Translations under genes and position numbers: made by a program
IMG/VR virus record: IMGVR_UViG_3300037484_000319
Span: 1-40,749 of that record
Length of the DNA stretch: 40,749 nt
Strand: one strand, 5' to 3'
Source of the DNA: a virus
Lineage: Duplodnaviria; Caudoviricetes
The notes under the pieces: generated by a model
The model's input: only the letters and a program-made list of their open reading frames with translations
What the model was told of the DNA's origin: nothing
Database searches by the model: none
Shown here: piece after piece, positions 3,126-39,943 of the stretch
Layout of the letters: each line of letters opens with the position of its first letter
Numbering within the stretch: position 1 is the first letter of the stretch

Positions 3126-4454
3126 TTATGCTCCTCTTACTAGCCGGCCGCCGACGGTGATGTACGCATTCGAGGAAGCGACAAACAGGTACCAGAACGA
3201 CAACCCGGCAAAACCTCCAACATCCCAGCCGCCGCCCAACAGGGCAATTCGCTGCGCAGCGGCTCTATAGTAGTAATCCGCGTAATAGGTCGTCGATCCA
3301 CCTCCAACTGCGGTCGGAAACTCAGCAAATGGGCAGGCTGCGTCGAAACCCATCACCGTTGGGTATCCATCTCCTGTCCCGTAATTCACAAAGCTCAGCT
3401 GCTCGTAGGGTGCGGCGAACACATTACTGGCGTAATCCGCCGGCGTCCTGCACACCCATGCCTGGAAATCGTTGATGTTCACGCCATCCACGAACTGGTA
3501 AATATTTCCCCACGGGTTCTCTATCCCGCGGTACTTGCATGGGTATTTCCCGCTTGAGTTGCTGGTCAGGCTGCCTGATGCAGCCACCACCCCATCTGTC
3601 GCCCCCGATTTCCAGCCTAGAGAATATATGATGTTTCCAACAGACACGTTGAACGGCGCGCCGTCAACGGTGATAGCTTTATTGGAGGCGTCGTACACGG
3701 CAATGGACTGGATCACGCGGTTTGAAAATATCTGGTTGCCGCCGAGCGACGTACCCAGCCCCACCGTCTGTCCCACCACGAACAAAGCTGCTGTGGCATT
3801 GGCTACGATAATCCGATTGACCGCGTTCTCTGCCACGGTTGCTGTGTGTCCTACGGCATAAGCCCCCGCGGTCAGCCCGGACATCTTTGACTGGCTATGC
3901 AGAGTGGCAAATTCGACGTAGAACAGGGTGCGGATCAAATCTACTACATGAATATCCATCTGGTAATAGCTTGCGCCGTTAGCCTCCGCAAATGTCCTGA
4001 AGTTAACGATGGTATTGCTAACCAGTGGGAATGCCCCCGACACGCTTTGCAGGACCGCCGCGGCTTTGGAAGCGTTGTACTTGCCAACATCCACGTAACT
4101 TGCGCCCGCAAAACAGGCGGGGAGATATGCCCCCGCGAAGTAGCCCTGTGAAACCTGCCATGTTCTAGCCGCACCTACCGCCGTCTTTTTGATGTAGAAT
4201 TTTGGGATGCGGACGAACTTGTTTCCTAGGCCGTCTGTCACATCGGTCATATCCGACCAAGGATAAATGCTGTCGAAGTCGTTCACCACCGGTGTCGCAT
4301 CCACCCCGGCGTTGGCAGTCAATCCCACCGCCGCATCCGTCCTCGTCAGTGTGGGCGTTGCCAGGCCATCCCACGATGCCCCGTAGATGTCCGGCACAGC
4401 TCCCCCTCCGAACAGGGGCGCAAATGGTTTACCAAATGGCGCGCTAAATGTCAT
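3126..4454 (-). CDS. Tail fibre / receptor-binding protein with C-terminal C-type-lectin-fold (Mtd/FGE-like) domain and DGR-type variable region
   Basis: FVRIPKFY, YRGIENPWGNIYQFVDG and terminal GGxW...AG...W.L....SNA....GGRL motifs typical of DGR target proteins. Confidence 0.8.
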   Translation of the reverse strand: MTFSAPFGKPFAPLFGGGAVPDIYGASWDGLATPTLTRTDAAVGLTANAGVDATPVVNDFDSIYPWSDMTDVTDGLGNKFVRIPKFYIKKTAVGAARTWQVSQGYFAGAYLPACFAGASYVDVGKYNASKAAAVLQSVSGAFPLVSNTIVNFRTFAEANGASYYQMDIHVVDLIRTLFYVEFATLHSQSKMSGLTAGAYAVGHTATVAENAVNRIIVANATAALFVVGQTVGLGTSLGGNQIFSNRVIQSIAVYDASNKAITVDGAPFNVSVGNIIYSLGWKSGATDGVVAASGSLTSNSSGKYPCKYRGIENPWGNIYQFVDGVNINDFQAWVCRTPADYASNVFAAPYEQLSFVNYGTGDGYPTVMGFDAACPFAEFPTAVGGGSTTYYADYYYRAAAQRIALLGGGWDVGGFAGLSFWYLFVASSNAYITVGGRLVRGA

Positions 4455-4469
4455 TTGCTTCCTCCATCC

Positions 4470-4550
4470 TCACACCAATCCCAGCTCCCTCATCCCCGCC
4501 AGCACGCCCGTGCGCGCCGACGCCTGCTCCATCCCCGTGCCGTTAAACAT
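4470..4550 (-). CDS. 26-aa micro-ORF or gene remnant (MFNGTGMEQASARTGVLAGMRELGLV)
   Basis: Own GAGG SD; fills the gap between the tail genes. Confidence 0.35.
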   Translation of the reverse strand: MFNGTGMEQASARTGVLAGMRELGLV

Positions 4551-4557
4551 AGTTACC

Positions 4558-6549
4558 TCACAGTTGCGTCATCACCGGTGGTGTCAAGAAACCCCACCAG
4601 ACCAACTCGACCATTACAAGCACATTTGCCGTCCCAGGGCTCGACCCGATGATATCAACATTAAATTGAATATCATTTAGATATTCGCTCGTTTCCAGCA
4701 CTGTCATCGTAACAGTCGCAATACTCCTTACTATTCCATTCGTGGCCGCAACGGCCGTTTCCATTACCTCTGAAACCGCGCTGTTTACTCCTGTGCCGGC
4801 GTCGAGCATCGCCCGGCAAAACTGTGCTGTGAAACCCCTCGTCGCCACGTTCGTTGATGCTTCATTCACGCTATGTCCGATCATGGCATGCACAAACACA
4901 GAATATCCGCCACCATCATGTGAACCGGACTCATTGGCCGTTGCGATCCGGAAGACCGACGTGGCCACCGCATCGGTGACCGTTTTCTGAAACACCGCCC
5001 GGATCACCTGACTCGCCTGGGCAATCTTGCCGGATACGGCTATATTTGCCGTACTCACATCTCCGGTGATTTGAGCATTTCCGGAAACTGACAGGCTATC
5101 AAAGCTCGCATTCCCGCCCACAGAGCCTGCGTCGACACCCTGCTCGTGCGTACTCAGATTCTGCGTCTGCGTCATCCCGCTCAGTGTGAAGCTCTGTGCC
5201 GTTGTTGGCCAGGCATCCACAGTTGCTACAACCAGATCTACCGAGCGCAACCCGTGAGAATCGATCTTGGTGCGTGACTCCAGCACAATCAAATCAGTAT
5301 CGATATTTAGTGCCTGATAACCATCGATCCAACGCTGGTAGATCACCCGCATGAGCTCGCCAGGTAAAATCTCGCTATCTAGCTTTGTGATTGAGAGTCT
5401 GTATGCTTTTTGGATTGTCTTCGCGCGTCTGAGATATTCATAGGTCTGCTCGTATAGTTCATCCACATCGTCAATATCTTTAAATATGATTCTCCGCTCG
5501 ATCCCATAGGATGACCAGGTCGATGTATGCTCGAGGTAATAGCCCTTCCCAGCTACCGAGCCAAGCGCGTACCCGCTGGGTGGTGTGATGGTCACCCCAT
5601 TTAATTCATACTTTGCAGACCCGATCCCCGATCCAATTGCATATACTCGCCCAATCAGACCATCATAGCCATCTTCGATCTCTTCGAGGCTGGTGATCAG
5701 GGCAATATTAGGATTGTCTGCAATCTTGCCTGGATCTCCCGATTGCACCGCACGTATTCCACTATGCGGGTTGACCACCACCGTGAGTGTGGTCGTTGCA
5801 CCGGAGCTGCCCCCAGTGACTGGCTCGAGCGCAAAACTTCCGCTAACATCTTCAAGATATAGCGATTCCAGTGGGCCGTCGATATAGTTTTCTCGGTATA
5901 TACCTGTTGCACCAGAGATGCCCCCGGTCACTGTCTCGCCTGCCGTAAATGGGCCGCCGATGATGAGCCCGTGGGTCAACTTTGCACTGCCCACTTTGCG
6001 CAGCCAGGTAATTTCTCTTCCAGATCCTAGCCTGAATTGTTCCCCAGTTAATTCTGCAAGCCTGTAGAACGCCTCCAGGACGGTTTCCCCATCATATGTG
6101 TGATAAATGGCCTTGTAGGTCTTTTTAAAGCCGCCTGAGCCGTCCAGACTCCACCCAGACGGTGCCAGCGCGATCAGCGTCTCAGCGCCCGTGTTTACCG
6201 GCACAGCTTTCGTCCCAATTGCCGTCGTACCCACGTGTAAATATACTAACTCTCTAAATAGGTCATCGCCGGAGATCTCAAGATCAATTAGATCTGATTT
6301 TGGTGAGCGTTTGATGCTGTCGATAATCCCCGCGCCGAGATCTGCAACTGCGCTCAGTATGATGGTTCTACACCTGGCTACGAACTTCAGGCTTGCCAGG
6401 CTGGCCCGCTCGTCGTTGCCAGGCAATCTGAATCGAAAATCCCCCGCCTCACTCAGGCGCCGGGTCTGTTCCCAGTCCTGGGCCGTGTAGATCGGCCCAG
6501 CGCCTTGTTTGCTGCCTGAGGAGTCTTCGATGTCGATCCAGAATCGCAT
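4558..6549 (-). CDS. Tail tip / baseplate hub protein (Tal/endopeptidase-tail-like) with C-terminal extension
   Basis: Position downstream of Dit; N-terminal W...RRLSEAGDF.F.LP pattern; start moved to ATG 6549 (TAATG overlap with the upstream stop). Confidence 0.7.
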   Translation of the reverse strand: MRFWIDIEDSSGSKQGAGPIYTAQDWEQTRRLSEAGDFRFRLPGNDERASLASLKFVARCRTIILSAVADLGAGIIDSIKRSPKSDLIDLEISGDDLFRELVYLHVGTTAIGTKAVPVNTGAETLIALAPSGWSLDGSGGFKKTYKAIYHTYDGETVLEAFYRLAELTGEQFRLGSGREITWLRKVGSAKLTHGLIIGGPFTAGETVTGGISGATGIYRENYIDGPLESLYLEDVSGSFALEPVTGGSSGATTTLTVVVNPHSGIRAVQSGDPGKIADNPNIALITSLEEIEDGYDGLIGRVYAIGSGIGSAKYELNGVTITPPSGYALGSVAGKGYYLEHTSTWSSYGIERRIIFKDIDDVDELYEQTYEYLRRAKTIQKAYRLSITKLDSEILPGELMRVIYQRWIDGYQALNIDTDLIVLESRTKIDSHGLRSVDLVVATVDAWPTTAQSFTLSGMTQTQNLSTHEQGVDAGSVGGNASFDSLSVSGNAQITGDVSTANIAVSGKIAQASQVIRAVFQKTVTDAVATSVFRIATANESGSHDGGGYSVFVHAMIGHSVNEASTNVATRGFTAQFCRAMLDAGTGVNSAVSEVMETAVAATNGIVRSIATVTMTVLETSEYLNDIQFNVDIIGSSPGTANVLVMVELVWWGFLTPPVMTQL

Positions 6550-8104: not shown

Positions 8105-8953
8105 TTACCTCTCTCCATCTCGAAACTCAAAAACAATCACAGAATTTACACCCCCACCCACACGCTGCACTTCAATCGTGTTATCGCCTGGCTCTAATCT
8201 CAACCAATCATCCGTCTTGTGCAGGGTCGACCAGGATAGGTTTGCATAATCCTCGCTGCCATCGTTTACCACTGAGAGCGCGCCGCAATCAACCACGAGA
8301 GATTTGCCAATTGCGATTGTCCCGTTATAGATCCATTTCTCATAGGTTGTGGCGCCAATCTGCCGCGCCACGCTCAGCGAGGTAATAGCTGCACTGCCGG
8401 CAGTGATTGTCGCCTTCACACTCGTTACGCGGGCGTTGCCGCCGTTGTTGACTGTCACGTATTTTGGGGTTGTATCCAACGTGAAGCTAATGCCGGAATC
8501 GTCAAAGACCAGCCCATCATCGAAATAATAGCCAGAGTCAAAAGTCCAGGTCAGATGCTCTTGCCCATACCATTGTGGTGATAGTGGCAAAAACACCAAT
8601 TGTGCCTGGATGGAATCGAAATCCTTCTTCGTGCGTCGTGTCTGCACACGCATCAGCCTGGCCATGATCTTATGAACAGCGTCATCCTGTTCATCTCTGC
8701 GATATAGCCATCCACGCTTGCCAATTGCCGCACGCAGCGCTCGGTATTGAGTTTGCCAACCGCTTCCGGCAAATACTGCTGTTACAGGAATGTCTCGTTT
8801 GACCAATGGTGCGATCTCATCACCATACGCATCATATTGCCCGCCGCCGGGTAGAATCGCCGTGGCCACCTGCGCCTCATGCGTGCCGATGTCTTGCTGC
8901 GCCTCAAGTGCTGATATGGGCAGATTCCCGAATCGCTCGATGATATAGGTCAC
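8105..8953 (-). CDS. Distal tail protein (Dit / siphovirus tail component)
   Basis: Directly follows the tape measure gene; VNNGGN and WLRLEPGDNTIEV motifs typical of Dit proteins. Confidence 0.8.
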   Translation of the reverse strand: MTYIIERFGNLPISALEAQQDIGTHEAQVATAILPGGGQYDAYGDEIAPLVKRDIPVTAVFAGSGWQTQYRALRAAIGKRGWLYRRDEQDDAVHKIMARLMRVQTRRTKKDFDSIQAQLVFLPLSPQWYGQEHLTWTFDSGYYFDDGLVFDDSGISFTLDTTPKYVTVNNGGNARVTSVKATITAGSAAITSLSVARQIGATTYEKWIYNGTIAIGKSLVVDCGALSVVNDGSEDYANLSWSTLHKTDDWLRLEPGDNTIEVQRVGGGVNSVIVFEFRDGER

Positions 8954-27211: not shown

Positions 27212-27769
27212 TTATGCGCTTAAGAGCTTTGCTGTGGCTGCGTGTAATTCCTTCGCCCGATCTGCAGTGATGTGCTGGCCACCGGAGAGAGCACTAAGTT
27301 TTTTTAAGAACTCAATTGCCTGCAGGTCAGTCTCGGGACCGACGAAGATAGTGCTGATGCGACTTTTATAAGTGCGTGCAACTTGTAATGTCTCTTCCTG
27401 GCTGTCAGGCCACCCATCTGTGATAATAATAAATTGCACGCCTTCGATATCAGCCACGCGTGCAAACTTAAGAGCTTTCGCCATATCCGTGCCGCCACCA
27501 AAGAATATCGGGATGCCTGAGGGGCAAAATTGCACATCATCACTAAAAGATAAAACCGCAAGTTTGCCCGGCAGGCTGTTTTGGAGATTTTTTAATTCTT
27601 CACATGCCACGTTATAACGTGATTGCCCGCCGCGGCTATCCTCACTCGACATGCTGCCACTAGAATCAGTTAAGATAATTACATCGCAGCTCATAAATGT
27701 CTCTGCGATTGACTTGCCTGATTGCTTAGCAATTGCACCCAAGCTGCCTGTAATAATAGAATTATTCAT
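27212..27769 (-). CDS. von Willebrand factor A (VWA) domain protein
   Basis: MIDAS motif DSSGSM, GGTDM..AL and IITDG.PD; start set at ATG 27769 with SD AAGGAG. Confidence 0.88.
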   Translation of the reverse strand: MNNSIITGSLGAIAKQSGKSIAETFMSCDVIILTDSSGSMSSEDSRGGQSRYNVACEELKNLQNSLPGKLAVLSFSDDVQFCPSGIPIFFGGGTDMAKALKFARVADIEGVQFIIITDGWPDSQEETLQVARTYKSRISTIFVGPETDLQAIEFLKKLSALSGGQHITADRAKELHAATAKLLSA

Positions 27770-28295
27770 GCTTCTCCTTAATGTCAAGCAATAATTGTGC
27801 TGGTAATCGCCCTGGGCCACGTCTGCAATTACATGACCTGTGTGCCACGCGTATATTATTAATTACATGAGGTCCGCCTAAGGCTATTGGGATTAGATGA
27901 TCGAACGATAATTCGTTTTTTCTGACTTTCTTACCGCAAATGTGACAGATTGAATTATCGCGTTTTAATATTGCTGAATAATCAACTTTTTCAACCGTGC
28001 TTCCTAATATCTTGGCTTGTCTTCTACGCCGAGCCTCGTTTCGCCGTAGTTTGTTTTCCCTTGACCACCTACGGTTCTTCTCAGACATGTAGTCACGATC
28101 ATTTTCCCACCGCCTAGCATTATATTTCTTGTGGTAGTCTTTTACATGTTCAGCGTTTTGTTGATCCCACTTTATTCTTGTTTCTCTCCTACATATCCTG
28201 CATTGTGCACGATACCCATTTTTTCCATTTTTGTCTTTTTGAAACTCGTCTAAACCTTTTTCTTGCCCACATTTAGTACAAATTTTCGTTGTCAC
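27762..28295 (-). CDS. HNH endonuclease with N-terminal Zn finger
   Basis: CTKC...CRIC; RD..ICHICG...FDHLIPIALGG.H...N....HRSCN; probable GTG start at 28295 with GGAGG SD. Confidence 0.88.
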   Translation of the reverse strand: MTTKICTKCGQEKGLDEFQKDKNGKNGYRAQCRICRRETRIKWDQQNAEHVKDYHKKYNARRWENDRDYMSEKNRRWSRENKLRRNEARRRRQAKILGSTVEKVDYSAILKRDNSICHICGKKVRKNELSFDHLIPIALGGPHVINNIRVAHRSCNCRRGPGRLPAQLLLDIKEKHE

Positions 28296-28460
28296 AGCAA
28301 AATGCCCTCCACTAGTTTGCTGCCATTGTCGAGATGAACAGCCAGGACGAATCCTACTAATGGAGGGCACTCTGCCCACAATATGCGATTGTGAGATTCC
28401 GGCAGCTTCAAAACAAAGCGCCCTGGTGTTCTGTTCATCTCGACAAGTCAAATTATACCA
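28296..28460 (-). promoter_or_regulatory. Extended -10 promoter and structured 5' leader of the HNH gene
   Basis: TGGTATAAT at 28452-28460; 16-bp perfect inverted repeat 28326-28341/28431-28446; 13-bp helix 28303-28315/28357-28369 covering the SD. Confidence 0.65.
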
Positions 28461-28464
28461 CATG

Positions 28465-29283
28465 CTAAATCCATTTTTCCACGGGAATAGATGCGCCAAA
28501 CGGCCAAGAACTGACTAACATTTGTCCAGATGAATTAATAATGTCATTCCAAGAAACGATTTTAAGTGCATGGAATCTTCCCAATTTCCGCTGTGCTTCA
28601 ACAAGAATCAGGCCACACTTTAAAGGAGCGCGGTATTCTTGCGCGAAATCAGAGGTTTGTTGTTCCCTTATAGAGTTTTCCAGAATTAATCCAGCGTCAT
28701 ATTTTGCTCTATGTAATGGGTTACTTAATACTTCAAATGCTTCGTTGATCCGCTTAAATCTTTCGGTAGCATCGGGTTCTTTTGAAATATCAGGATGCCA
28801 AATTTTAGCCATGCGTCGATAGGCTGTTTTTATATCGTCCTGGCTTATTCCCTGTTTCGCGCCAAGCAGACCATAAAGGGTAGTGTTATGATTTGCTTTG
28901 CCTGACATATCTATACCTTCAAACCAAATCCGTAGTACATCCTCCGGAAATACAACAGTCCAATCCTCGTTACTCCATCCATAAGCTATAGAGATTCCTT
29001 GCCCGCGTTCTTTGCAAGCTCCAATATATCTAACGTCAAGAATTTCTAGCGTTGCATCCTCTTGTCTAATTTGCACATCCGGCACAAACGCCATCTCGCC
29101 AAGATACTGAGTAATAAGCTCTGCGAGTAGTTTAGCGTGATTAGGCGTGGTCACCCAGACTTTACGTGCTGGGTCAAATCGCCGCTCGGTATAAGGGATG
29201 GCGGTTTTGAGTGCTGCGACCAGTCCGGCGTCATAGCGACACTGTAAGACAAGGCTATTATTTTCGAGTGTGATAGTTGCCAT
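28465..29283 (-). CDS. J-domain (DnaJ-type) protein with N-terminal HARP-like segment
   Basis: LY.LLG......DIKTAYRRMAKIWHPD....ATERFKRINEAFEVLSNP..RAKYD; N-terminal YDAGLVAALK..IP...RRFDPARKVW. Confidence 0.85.
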   Translation of the reverse strand: MATITLENNSLVLQCRYDAGLVAALKTAIPYTERRFDPARKVWVTTPNHAKLLAELITQYLGEMAFVPDVQIRQEDATLEILDVRYIGACKERGQGISIAYGWSNEDWTVVFPEDVLRIWFEGIDMSGKANHNTTLYGLLGAKQGISQDDIKTAYRRMAKIWHPDISKEPDATERFKRINEAFEVLSNPLHRAKYDAGLILENSIREQQTSDFAQEYRAPLKCGLILVEAQRKLGRFHALKIVSWNDIINSSGQMLVSSWPFGASIPVEKWI

Positions 29284-32143: not shown

Positions 32144-32257
32144 TTGCTCACTCTCCATAATTACACTAGTCATTTATTGGCCTTTTCTGGGTTACACTCT
32201 CCCACGGATAAAGCCTAACCTTTCGGCGTCCCTTTTTCTGTGACTACTCGATATCAG

Positions 32258-32514
32258 ATACAAGCACATGTACCCTAGCCGGAGTACTTATCGCGTCACT
32301 TGTTGGCTGGCTGGCAAGGATCAGTGCGTCTCCGATTTCGCTTTTTGCCGACAAGGCTGCCGGTGCTGCCACCACTAGCAAGTTGGGTGCGCAATGTCTA
32401 CACCTAGATGCAGACAACCTTACTCCGACTTGGGTTAATTCCCATTGTTGACGGGCACTCTAGGACGTGCCCTCGGCTTGTCCTTGCGCCAACTTCACCG
32501 CCGATGCTCTTATA
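32258..32514 (-). ncRNA. Candidate large structured ncRNA (multi-stem, pseudoknotted), family unknown
   Basis: Gap of about 340 nt with no credible ORF and at least 6 helices; G-U wobbles form only on the minus strand. Confidence 0.55.
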
Positions 32515-32515
32515 A

Positions 32516-32725
32516 TTATTTCCTGTTGATCTTGCGGCTCATGGCCGCCATCTTGCGGCGTTTCTTGGATTCACCCAATAACGGTGCTTTCGTGTATGGC
32601 CGGTGTCGCAGCCCATGCCGGCGCTGCTGTGTTGGCCGGTGAAAGAGTGCACCTGTCCAGGCGTCTTTGTGTCCTTTAGGAGCGCCGCCACGTAGCAGAC
32701 TTTGGAGTGCTTCGAGCAGGTTCAT
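32516..32725 (-). CDS. Small basic hypothetical protein
   Basis: ATGA overlap with the HNH stop; C-terminal KKRRKMAAMSRKINRK. Confidence 0.55.
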   Translation of the reverse strand: MNLLEALQSLLRGGAPKGHKDAWTGALFHRPTQQRRHGLRHRPYTKAPLLGESKKRRKMAAMSRKINRK

Positions 32726-33207
32726 GAGACTGTACTCCAATGAAAACCTCTGACTATATGTCTGACTTGAGCGCCCGTAATACCAAACTCTTTCCCGAGT
32801 TGCTTCATAGTCACACCGCCGGCGTTGTATCGCTTACGAATAATCTGTGCAATCTCTGAGTTGATTTTTGCTGCTGGATTATTTTCACCATGATGATCAG
32901 GTGTTATCCTCCGTCCTTTTGTATCCATATCATGCGTGTTGTCGGAAGGTGTTCCCAAAAACAAATGATTCGGATTTACACAAGCACGGTTATCACATCG
33001 ATGGCAGACAAACAAACCATCAGGAATTTGCCCATATGCAAGAATATAAGATACTCGATGGGCACCAATAGATTTTTGATGACCAATACTGGCTTTTCCG
33101 TATCCAGGATTATGTATTGCACCAGTCCACGGCCAGCAATCATTAGATGAATCTTTACCTACCTTATTCCAAAAATTGTTTATGTTTTCGGCAGACAACT
33201 CGATCAT
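32722..33207 (-). CDS. HNH endonuclease (HNH_3 type) with C-terminal HTH
   Basis: CWPWTG....GYG, AHRVSY, VCHRCDNRACVNPNHLFLGT..DN and GENNPAAK motifs. Confidence 0.92.
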   Translation of the reverse strand: MIELSAENINNFWNKVGKDSSNDCWPWTGAIHNPGYGKASIGHQKSIGAHRVSYILAYGQIPDGLFVCHRCDNRACVNPNHLFLGTPSDNTHDMDTKGRRITPDHHGENNPAAKINSEIAQIIRKRYNAGGVTMKQLGKEFGITGAQVRHIVRGFHWSTVS

Positions 33208-35095: not shown

Positions 35096-35866
35096 TTATG
35101 CTCCTTGTGATTTTTCTAAAACATCAAACACTTCATCGTCGTTGATGTTGAGTATGGTTTCGAATTGTTCGGCGGTCCTTAGACCGAACACGCCGCGGAT
35201 TTTACGCCGTGTTGCCATGCCCACCGGCGCGTTTTCAATAGATAGATCCGTAAGCCCGCTTAGTGCGTGGCCTAAATGCCCACCCGCCCATTCGAGGATC
35301 CGCATGGTACTCTCTATGCCAATACCAGGCAGGGTGGTAAGCAATGCCGCTTGCGGGCCAAGGATGTTAGGGACTCTTGGTGGTAAGAGTCTTAACTCGC
35401 CCCGTGAGCGTTTGCCAAGTCTTAAGATTGCCTGCTCATAATCGGTCTCGCCGCAGAGAATTATCATTACCCCCATTTCTTGGGCAGTTAATAGTGCACC
35501 TTGCACGGCATCCCAGTCCCAGCCGGTAAGACCACGATCCTGTGTGATCACTTTGCCATTTGGACCACGTCGCAGCTCGCCGGTGATCATCAAATAGGGC
35601 CACGAGGTTATACTGAGCGAGTTTGCCTGTTCGTCAAGTCTCGGTTGCACGAGGTGGGCAAGCTGCGGGAATAACCTCTCGTCACGTAATGTGTTGAGTA
35701 GATCATCTGGTGTCTTACGCTCGATGGTCAGGATACAGCCATCATCGCATACTGCCTGCAGGTCTCCGGAATCAAGCATCATGATTGTGGTCGGAACGCC
35801 ACCAAAGTTCATATCTTGGATGTATTTAGGTTCTCTTGAATCCACGACTATAGCTGTCACGCTCAT
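35096..35866 (-). CDS. ERCC4/XPF-type nuclease with HhH
   Basis: VDSRE, GD and IERKT..D motif (GDxnERKxxxD); LPGIG HhH; TAATG overlap start. Confidence 0.85.
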   Translation of the reverse strand: MSVTAIVVDSREPKYIQDMNFGGVPTTIMMLDSGDLQAVCDDGCILTIERKTPDDLLNTLRDERLFPQLAHLVQPRLDEQANSLSITSWPYLMITGELRRGPNGKVITQDRGLTGWDWDAVQGALLTAQEMGVMIILCGETDYEQAILRLGKRSRGELRLLPPRVPNILGPQAALLTTLPGIGIESTMRILEWAGGHLGHALSGLTDLSIENAPVGMATRRKIRGVFGLRTAEQFETILNINDDEVFDVLEKSQGA

Positions 35867-36441
35867 TAGATGTGTCTCCAAGTTTTATGTTTTAGGATTG
35901 CCTGTATGGTGGTTGGGGAGACATTGAATTCTTTAGCTAGATCGTAAGAAGTTGTTTTCCCTGGACAATATTTATTGCGTATATGTCTGACATTTTCTTC
36001 AGTTAATTTTGCGAGTGGATTACACTCACCTCTTTTGAATCCTTCCTTATTTTTACGAGGCCCACGTGCCAATTTTTCAGGATTGGTTCGGCTATAATGT
36101 TGATCTCCCTTTGGATATTTTTCAGGATGTTTTCTATATCCATTACGGTCACCTAATGCACTCCTTTTTTTCCTGGCCATATCACGGTTATTATCTAAGG
36201 CTGTTCCCAAAAATAAATGCTCAGGTCTAACACATCCACGATTGTCACAATGATGACAAACATACAGACCTTCAGGTATGGGGCCATTAGTTAGAATCCA
36301 TGAAACGCGATGCGCCCGTTGAGTTCTTCCCTGAAACCAAACCTTTCCATATCCGCGACCAACCTTCGGACCCGTCCAAATCCAACATTCTCCGGACTTG
36401 TTAATTCTTGACCAAAATTTATCCGCTGCAGTTATTGTCAT
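35866..36441 (-). CDS. HNH endonuclease (HNH_3 type) with C-terminal HTH
   Basis: CWIWTG....[31 protein letters not shown] and [11 protein letters not shown] motifs. Confidence 0.92.
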
Positions 36442-39094: not shown

Positions 39095-39179
39095 TACTGA
39101 TTATCTGTTATTTACCGATAGTCAGTATTATACCGATTAACAGTGAGTTGTCAAGGGTTGTGATGAAAACTGCTATAAT
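39095..39179. promoter_or_regulatory. Lysis/lysogeny switch: divergent promoters and three tandem operators
   Basis: Minus strand TTGACA (39149-39154)-16 nt-TATAAT (39127-39132); plus strand TGcTATAAT (39171-39179); 15-bp sites at 39095, 39113 and 39131. Confidence 0.8.
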
Positions 39180-39898: not shown

Positions 39899-39943
39899 CT
39901 GTGGATCAAGTGGTTGTGGGTTCGACCCCCATCAGGCACCCCA
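39899..39943 (+). repeat. attR core (displaced 3' half of tRNA-His)
   Basis: 45-bp identity with 83-127. Confidence 0.95.

Follow-up and report, generated by a model that had tools for sequence, protein, structure and literature searches.

A conserved structured RNA family with predicted clasped ends in uncultured phages

HEARO, or omega RNA, is a structured RNA that adjoins an HNH gene. Small structured RNAs are also found in phage tRNA clusters e.g. the species 1 and 2 RNAs of T4 (rnaC and rnaD; NC_000866.4 70908-71171), which carry the annotation 'small, stable RNA'. GOLLD and ROOL are described, in the accessible portion of 10.1101/2024.12.08.627333, as phage or prophage RNAs of unknown function that often lie near tRNA islands; they are ~600-800+ nt long with many pseudoknots and assemble into cages, and the same portion gives no known protein partner for ROOL. 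Theta ribozymes (minimal HDV-like ribozymes) are likewise small phage RNAs with pseudoknots, located next to tRNA genes, and start at the tRNA 3' end according to the available sections of PMC10879173. The RNA reported here belongs to a known kind, the structured phage RNAs that lie near tRNAs and whose function is unknown; its fold and its end module are absent from the catalogues and literature that we searched.

The window, i.e. the whole stretch of 40,749 nucleotides that was analysed (IMG/VR virus record IMGVR_UViG_3300037484_000319), contains a gap for which the first-pass annotation had proposed a novel structured phage ncRNA at 32258-32514 on the minus strand. We confirmed that the gap holds no credible gene and, judging by homologues and their covariation, this stretch without genes codes for a folded RNA of a conserved family that matches no Rfam family. 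The proposal of a novel minus-strand ncRNA was therefore upheld. Its location was right in that an RNA is there, but the true extent is about 32508-32176 (~330 nt, its ends being predicted from the core of the family and from the positions of two relatives that abut tRNA genes) and the fold is different.

The members of this family are 136-430 nt long and have one junction, unlike GOLLD and ROOL as presented in the accessible part of their description, and they have no Rfam match to either. The T4 RNAs do not match our models R1 or R2 (L410), and the new family lacks the T-arm-like stem-loop in which rnaC ends. The fold also differs from that of the theta/HDV ribozymes: the HDV L3 motif occurs in 0/15 members, and a start at a tRNA 3' end in 1/15. 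In the window the RNA lies beside an HNH gene, as HEARO/omega RNA does, but there is no Rfam match and the HNH gene is of the phage homing type and is not a common neighbour of the family.

The window is a complete temperate siphophage prophage, with integrase, head, tail and lysis genes annotated. It adjoins a tRNA-His gene (53-127) whose final 45 bases are repeated at 39899-39943, and on the evidence of this 45-bp duplicated core tRNA-His is the integration site. A host response-regulator-like gene occupies the right end. One homologue of the integrase (40% identity) is named from an Anaerolineales bacterium and a neighbouring gene of the RNA in family member L154 has a match named from a Chloroflexi bacterium, so the host of the window prophage is likely to belong to the Chloroflexota; one family member, in contrast, sits in a MAG labelled Brevinema. 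The recombination/replication operon is on the minus strand and holds, upstream of the RNA gap, an exonuclease gene, an HNH endonuclease gene (32722-33207) and an ORF for a basic 69-aa protein (32516-32725). This early operon is headed by a sigma-70-type promoter at 39127-39154 (minus strand; 12/12 consensus match, assigned by consensus match only) which lies 6.6 kb from the RNA, and the RNA is likely to be transcribed as part of it. Three HNH or endonuclease VII-type genes are present in the operon on the minus strand (27762-28499, 32722-33207 and 35866-36441).

The 69-aa ORF belongs to a genuine small phage family with six homologues, whose conserved C-terminal half is Arg/Lys-rich; it has no PHROG family and no ESM Atlas family. 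Alignment of this protein family led to one distinct further locus (L006-L008), where three short motifs from the gap recur ~1 kb downstream of the 69-aa gene. Pattern scans using these three motifs gathered at least 15 distinct members including the window; of the 14 besides the window, 13 are in phage contigs. One scan gave members at 14 of its 50 loci (13 distinct), and another gave one member among the 120 matches listed. The carriers appear to be uncultured phages that are largely unrelated to each other, 35-112 kb in size where complete and with 38-58% GC. As the members were chosen by motif patterns, invariance within those motifs is partly built in, and because they are related as well as motif-picked the counts are not independent. 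The loop of the 3' hairpin (P4) reads GUGURA in 15/15 members, although it was absent from every pattern used to find them. Eight candidates were dropped because they were coding or had no core (L083, L153, L155, L258, L185, L195, L204 and L243), and L002 was spurious. In the related contigs L099, L102, L107, L109 and L111 the middle motif lies inside another conserved stretch without the remaining core, which is probably the antisense of a gene.

A model built from seven members scored six held-out members at 68-93 bits, compared with at most 24.7 bits for non-members (281 sources scored). Two members with long inserts that split the match scored lower, i.e. L164 (27.9 bits) and the window (39.1 + 16.5 bits). 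When Rfam 15 was searched at the gathering threshold there was no relevant family in the window and 13 member loci gave tRNAs only, and searching the window and L008 in E-value mode (E up to 10) also gave nothing relevant. BLAST against cultured phages and plasmids returned short chance matches only, and the RNA was not found in the examined flanks of three phages related via the exonuclease. A model search of 145 genomes from the order of an Anaerolineales MAG found 0 members, with 18 candidates scored per genome and no positive control; the loose 5' pattern matched in 41 of these 145 genomes. The 3' patterns matched 4/401 and 1/401 genomes of the phylum, none of which had the core on inspection. 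We found no description of the motif in the accessible portions of the literature searched, including PMC10085705, PMC10690425, PMC4810234, PMC10879173 and 10.1101/2024.12.08.627333. The spreadsheets and document of PMC10690425, an IMG/VR screen for structured RNAs, contain no match to the motif; part of the RNA may still stand, as an unnamed candidate, in its alignments.

The family core reads, from 5' to 3', tail (GCA), helix P1 (UCGGCK/MGCCGA), junction GWGAA, helix P2a (RYUGGC/GCCAGY), a 2-nt bulge, helix P2b, an optional insert D1, junction CARCAA, a variable P3, junction AGGAAAAGGKA and the P4 hairpin, and includes an A-rich three-way junction. All of the window coordinates that follow are on the minus strand. 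The tail (32505-32507) is invariant in 15/15 members. P1 is formed by UCGGCG at 32499-32504 and, from the family alignment and the window fold, CGCCGA at 32223-32228; it is paired in 90/90 cells, and its last pair is G-C in four members and U-A in 11. Junction J1/2 (32494-32498, consensus GWGAA) was part of the search patterns for most members. The 5' strands of P2a and P2b lie at 32482-32493 and their 3' strands, with the bulge at 32312-32313, at 32306-32319 in both alignment and fold. P2a, for which we used the RNAalifold register (model R1 has an earlier hand-drawn one), is paired in 88/90 cells and P2b in 80/90, the first pair of P2a being G-C in five members, A-U in nine and G-U in one. 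The alignment places J2/3 (CARCAA) at 32300-32305, while J3/1 (AGGAAAAGGKA, with AAGG invariant) is at 32229-32239. P3 (32240-32299) is a variable hairpin domain with 64/70 cells paired over 14 members; it is absent in L154 (2999-3128), the natural minimum of the family at about 130 nt. P4 is at 32179-32215, with its loop motif GUGUAA at 32197-32192. In total, ~40 core positions are invariant or near-invariant, alongside large optional inserts.

Insert D1 (32320-32481) is common to the window and L156 only, with 75% identity over 220 nt, and in the remaining members the same position is taken by 31-190 nt that are mostly unrelated in sequence. Another D1 insert, of 190 nt, is shared by L164 and L171 (73% over 234 nt), so there are at least two conserved payloads. 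The D1 of the window and L156 echoes words of the core (AAGCCG, GUCAACAA and a P4-like UGGG..UAACCCA hairpin); it may have arisen by an old duplication or represent a second, nested element.

Compensatory changes support the common core of P1, P2, three-way junction and 3' hairpin. In an alignment of seven sequences 94.2% of cells were paired and 15 of the 28 pairs changed on both sides, whereas none of 500 shuffles was as high and slid controls paired 18-40%; the structure was derived from that very alignment and the sequences are related. The G-U pairs and GAAA-capped hairpins on the minus strand point to RNA rather than DNA. Folding of single sequences was less decisive. The region 32200-32520 was not distinguished from shuffled controls (z = -0.94), and its strong helices (-10 kcal/mol or better) numbered four, where the shuffles averaged 2.6 and 42 of 150 had at least four, while the sub-domain 32378-32497 did stand out (z = -2.89). 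As this single-sequence evidence was weak, the homologues decided. With the corrected ends, both the free minimum-energy fold (-112.3) and the centroid of the window were the conserved core (z = -1.61); the z-scores of the members were modest (+0.4 to -2.4), and P1 was within the minimum-energy fold of 10/15.

The covariation supports another fold than the one drawn in the first-pass annotation. That fold consisted of nested helices and a 10-bp long-range pseudoknot, with the product of the adjacent HNH or 69-aa gene as the partner of the RNA, and we consider it very improbable as the functional structure. Its complementary segments are indeed present, the pseudoknot helix is the strongest single helix of the region (-14.0), and AAGUUGG and CCAACUU are both retained in L156, the sole relative with D1. 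Two of its hairpins are also kept there, namely UGGG/CCCA and GGGCAC/GUGCCC, the latter as GGGCAU/AUGCCC i.e. with a compensatory change. However, the 10-bp hairpin is missing from L156, as is the pseudoknot strand UACUCCGGCU, and the pseudoknot strand at 32277-32286 falls within the variable P3 and is not conserved; an exact pattern for the pair matched 0 viral contigs. The helices clash with the covarying P2a, since both the closing helix AAGUUGG/CCAACUU and the second-domain helix CUUGUCGGC/GCCAACAAG take bases from conserved P2a and J2/3. The nested helices were ~7 kcal/mol less stable than the core (-105.1 compared with -112.3, where -105.1 omits the energy of the pseudoknot, -14.0 as an isolated helix), and the drawn fold may be an alternative conformer in the window phage alone.

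The proposed protein partners fared no better. A gene of the 69-aa family also precedes the RNA in L008, by 1 kb, but the family was not found in the 12 other carrier records (five complete) in a search run without a positive control, and the HNH gene adjoins the RNA in the window only and is outside the protein clusters common to carriers. No protein cluster was present in more than 5/15 carriers, where L008 was covered over 6 kb only and several records were fragments, so that a common small protein could be missed. Neither gene is a constant companion of the RNA, and from this distribution the HNH and 69-aa proteins are unlikely to be its partners.

The two ends of the RNA are likely to be held together by a 3-bp pseudoknot, the 'clasp', in which GCA of the 5' tail would pair with UGU in the loop of P4. 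We found four stand-alone mini-copies of the tail, P1 and P4 (57-77 nt) beside full members: two are in L171, one is in L160 (2765-2821, minus strand) and one is in the carrier phage G005 (L395 8837-8904), where the full copy lies 7.6 kb away. Each has its own tail, a P1-like helix around a 20-45-nt insert and a P4 hairpin. The full members and two of the mini-copies have GCA in the tail and UGU in the loop, while the two L171 mini-copies have GCU and AGU, which reads as a compensatory change for the tail-loop pairing; as both are in one contig they count as a single event. A tail-loop descriptor allowing inserts of up to 450 nt also matched antisense controls (nine complementary and ten not), so only short-insert copies were counted. 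Across the members a longer P4 goes with a longer P1-P4 linker (rho 0.78, n = 15; the four long-P4 members are alike), as would be expected if the tail must reach the loop. Model R2 found no mini-copies in 37 sources beyond its four seeds and the full members. It is conceivable, though doubtful, that tail, P1 and P4 form a new portable module, which would serve either as the catalytic centre of a self-cleaving or processing ribozyme from a class not yet described, or as a naturally occurring cassette that locks the ends of its payload. As a cassette, the clasp would be loaded by phages with payloads ranging from 20-nt loops to a 400-nt junction domain, along early operons and tRNA arrays. Directly before the mini-copy in G005 there is a tRNA-shaped element (L395 about 8712-8820; G005:C1 about 48712-48820, plus strand) with acceptor-, D- and T-arm-like stems; a long insert replaces its anticodon arm, and neither ARAGORN nor Rfam called the element.

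All of the members are in the sense orientation relative to the surrounding early genes or tRNAs, with one full copy per record in the five records searched whole. A tRNA lies within 3 kb in 5/13 viral members compared with 0/36 control loci (Fisher p = 7e-4), a contrast inflated by the controls being mostly coding matches from other phages; L255, apart from these five, also has a tRNA nearby. The RNA of L145 occupies almost exactly the space from tRNA-Arg (ending at 2369) to tRNA-Gln (starting at 2567), its 5' end lying ~3 nt past the tRNA 3' end, and in L161 tRNA-Met begins ~5 nt past P4. The genes downstream are mostly unrelated, and a tRNA is the next feature in several members.

We tentatively favour a small RNA that is stable and discrete, has its ends clasped and binds a factor of the host. 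Such an RNA would be transcribed from the early promoter and cut out of the long early transcript by host nucleases or, where tRNAs flank it, released by tRNA processing, as the positions of L145 and L161 suggest; the 8/13 viral members without a nearby tRNA, and the window, show no evident release route. P1 and the predicted pseudoknot would hold both ends together and protect them, and the conserved A-rich three-way junction would serve as scaffold or decoy by binding a host-encoded factor, which from the tRNA context we guess to be a translation or RNA-processing component. This reading fits best because of the unpaired conserved junction bases, the two insert sites (large inserts are tolerated at two fixed points of the core), the tied ends, the tRNA-like placement and the lack of a phage partner. 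A new self-cleaving or RNA-processing ribozyme class, cleaving the early transcript at sites between genes or between tRNAs, with the clasp module as catalytic core and the junction domain as accessory, is somewhat unlikely. The coexistence of so many invariant positions with large optional inserts and the repetition of mini-copies beside full members would suit a ribozyme, and the 5' end of L145 is placed as described for theta ribozymes in the available part of PMC10879173, but L145 is the only one of the 15 members within 5 nt of a tRNA 3' end. There is also no Rfam ribozyme match, and the core motifs of the HDV/theta, hammerhead, hairpin, twister and pistol ribozymes occur in 0/15 members. 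Were the RNA to cleave it would be a new ribozyme class, whereas an RNA that does no more than lock its ends around the variable inserts would be a natural stabilising scaffold and a clue to the role of phage RNAs in tRNA arrays. The clear consensus, the natural ~130-nt form in L154 and the 57-77-nt mini-copies make the family directly testable.

Processive antitermination RNAs are known in the put- and EAR-like RNAs, and an RNA of this type acting on host RNA polymerase, or a riboswitch-like leader for the gene that follows, would make the family a cis-acting element of the early transcript. The constant sense orientation inside long early operons, the single full copy per record and, in 6/15 members, a 62-151-aa ORF that has a ribosome-site-like motif and starts within ~100 nt downstream are in keeping with this, and a host partner fits the absence of a common phage protein. 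We nevertheless think it unlikely, as there is no consistent downstream gene family, several members have a tRNA next, we saw neither a conserved terminator nor a conserved switch strand, and the promoter in the window, although strong, is 6.6 kb away. It is far less probable that the RNA is an RNase P core in degenerate and circularly permuted form, or that it binds the tRNA elbow as a T-loop platform. The tRNA context of the members would agree with either. Short stretches around P1 resemble CR I and CR V, and there are two candidate T-loops (GUGAA and UGUAA, proposed from sequence only), the UGU of the second doubling as the predicted clasp strand; an interdigitated T-loop platform consists of two pentanucleotide T-loops intermeshed in 3D, as defined in the accessible text of PMC4810234. 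The likeness to bacterial type A RNase P RNA (RF00010) is not significant and its defining elements are absent. Against profiles from 31 RNase P RNAs the z-scores of the CR II-V blocks averaged from -0.06 to 0.99, the permuted order (0.69) scored no better than other orders, and chain scores were 27-45 compared with 81-98 for true RNase P. CR I with its bulged U (GAAAGUCC), present in the RNase P RNAs compared, occurs in 0/15 members, CR IV is lacking, and the P2 strand that was supposed to be free is paired. The permuted RNase P reading was rejected on these block and order scores.

Some other features were seen in the surroundings of individual members. In L164 a tRNA-like gene with an unreadable 4-base anticodon (3444-3538, plus strand) lies ~20 nt past the RNA. 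Downstream of the RNA and tRNA-Met in L161 there are ORFs resembling queuosine/7-deazaguanine pathway genes (4061-5571, plus strand; QueF- and QueD-like by eye). The carrier phage G005 contains a group I intron match at L395 18335-18514 (plus strand).
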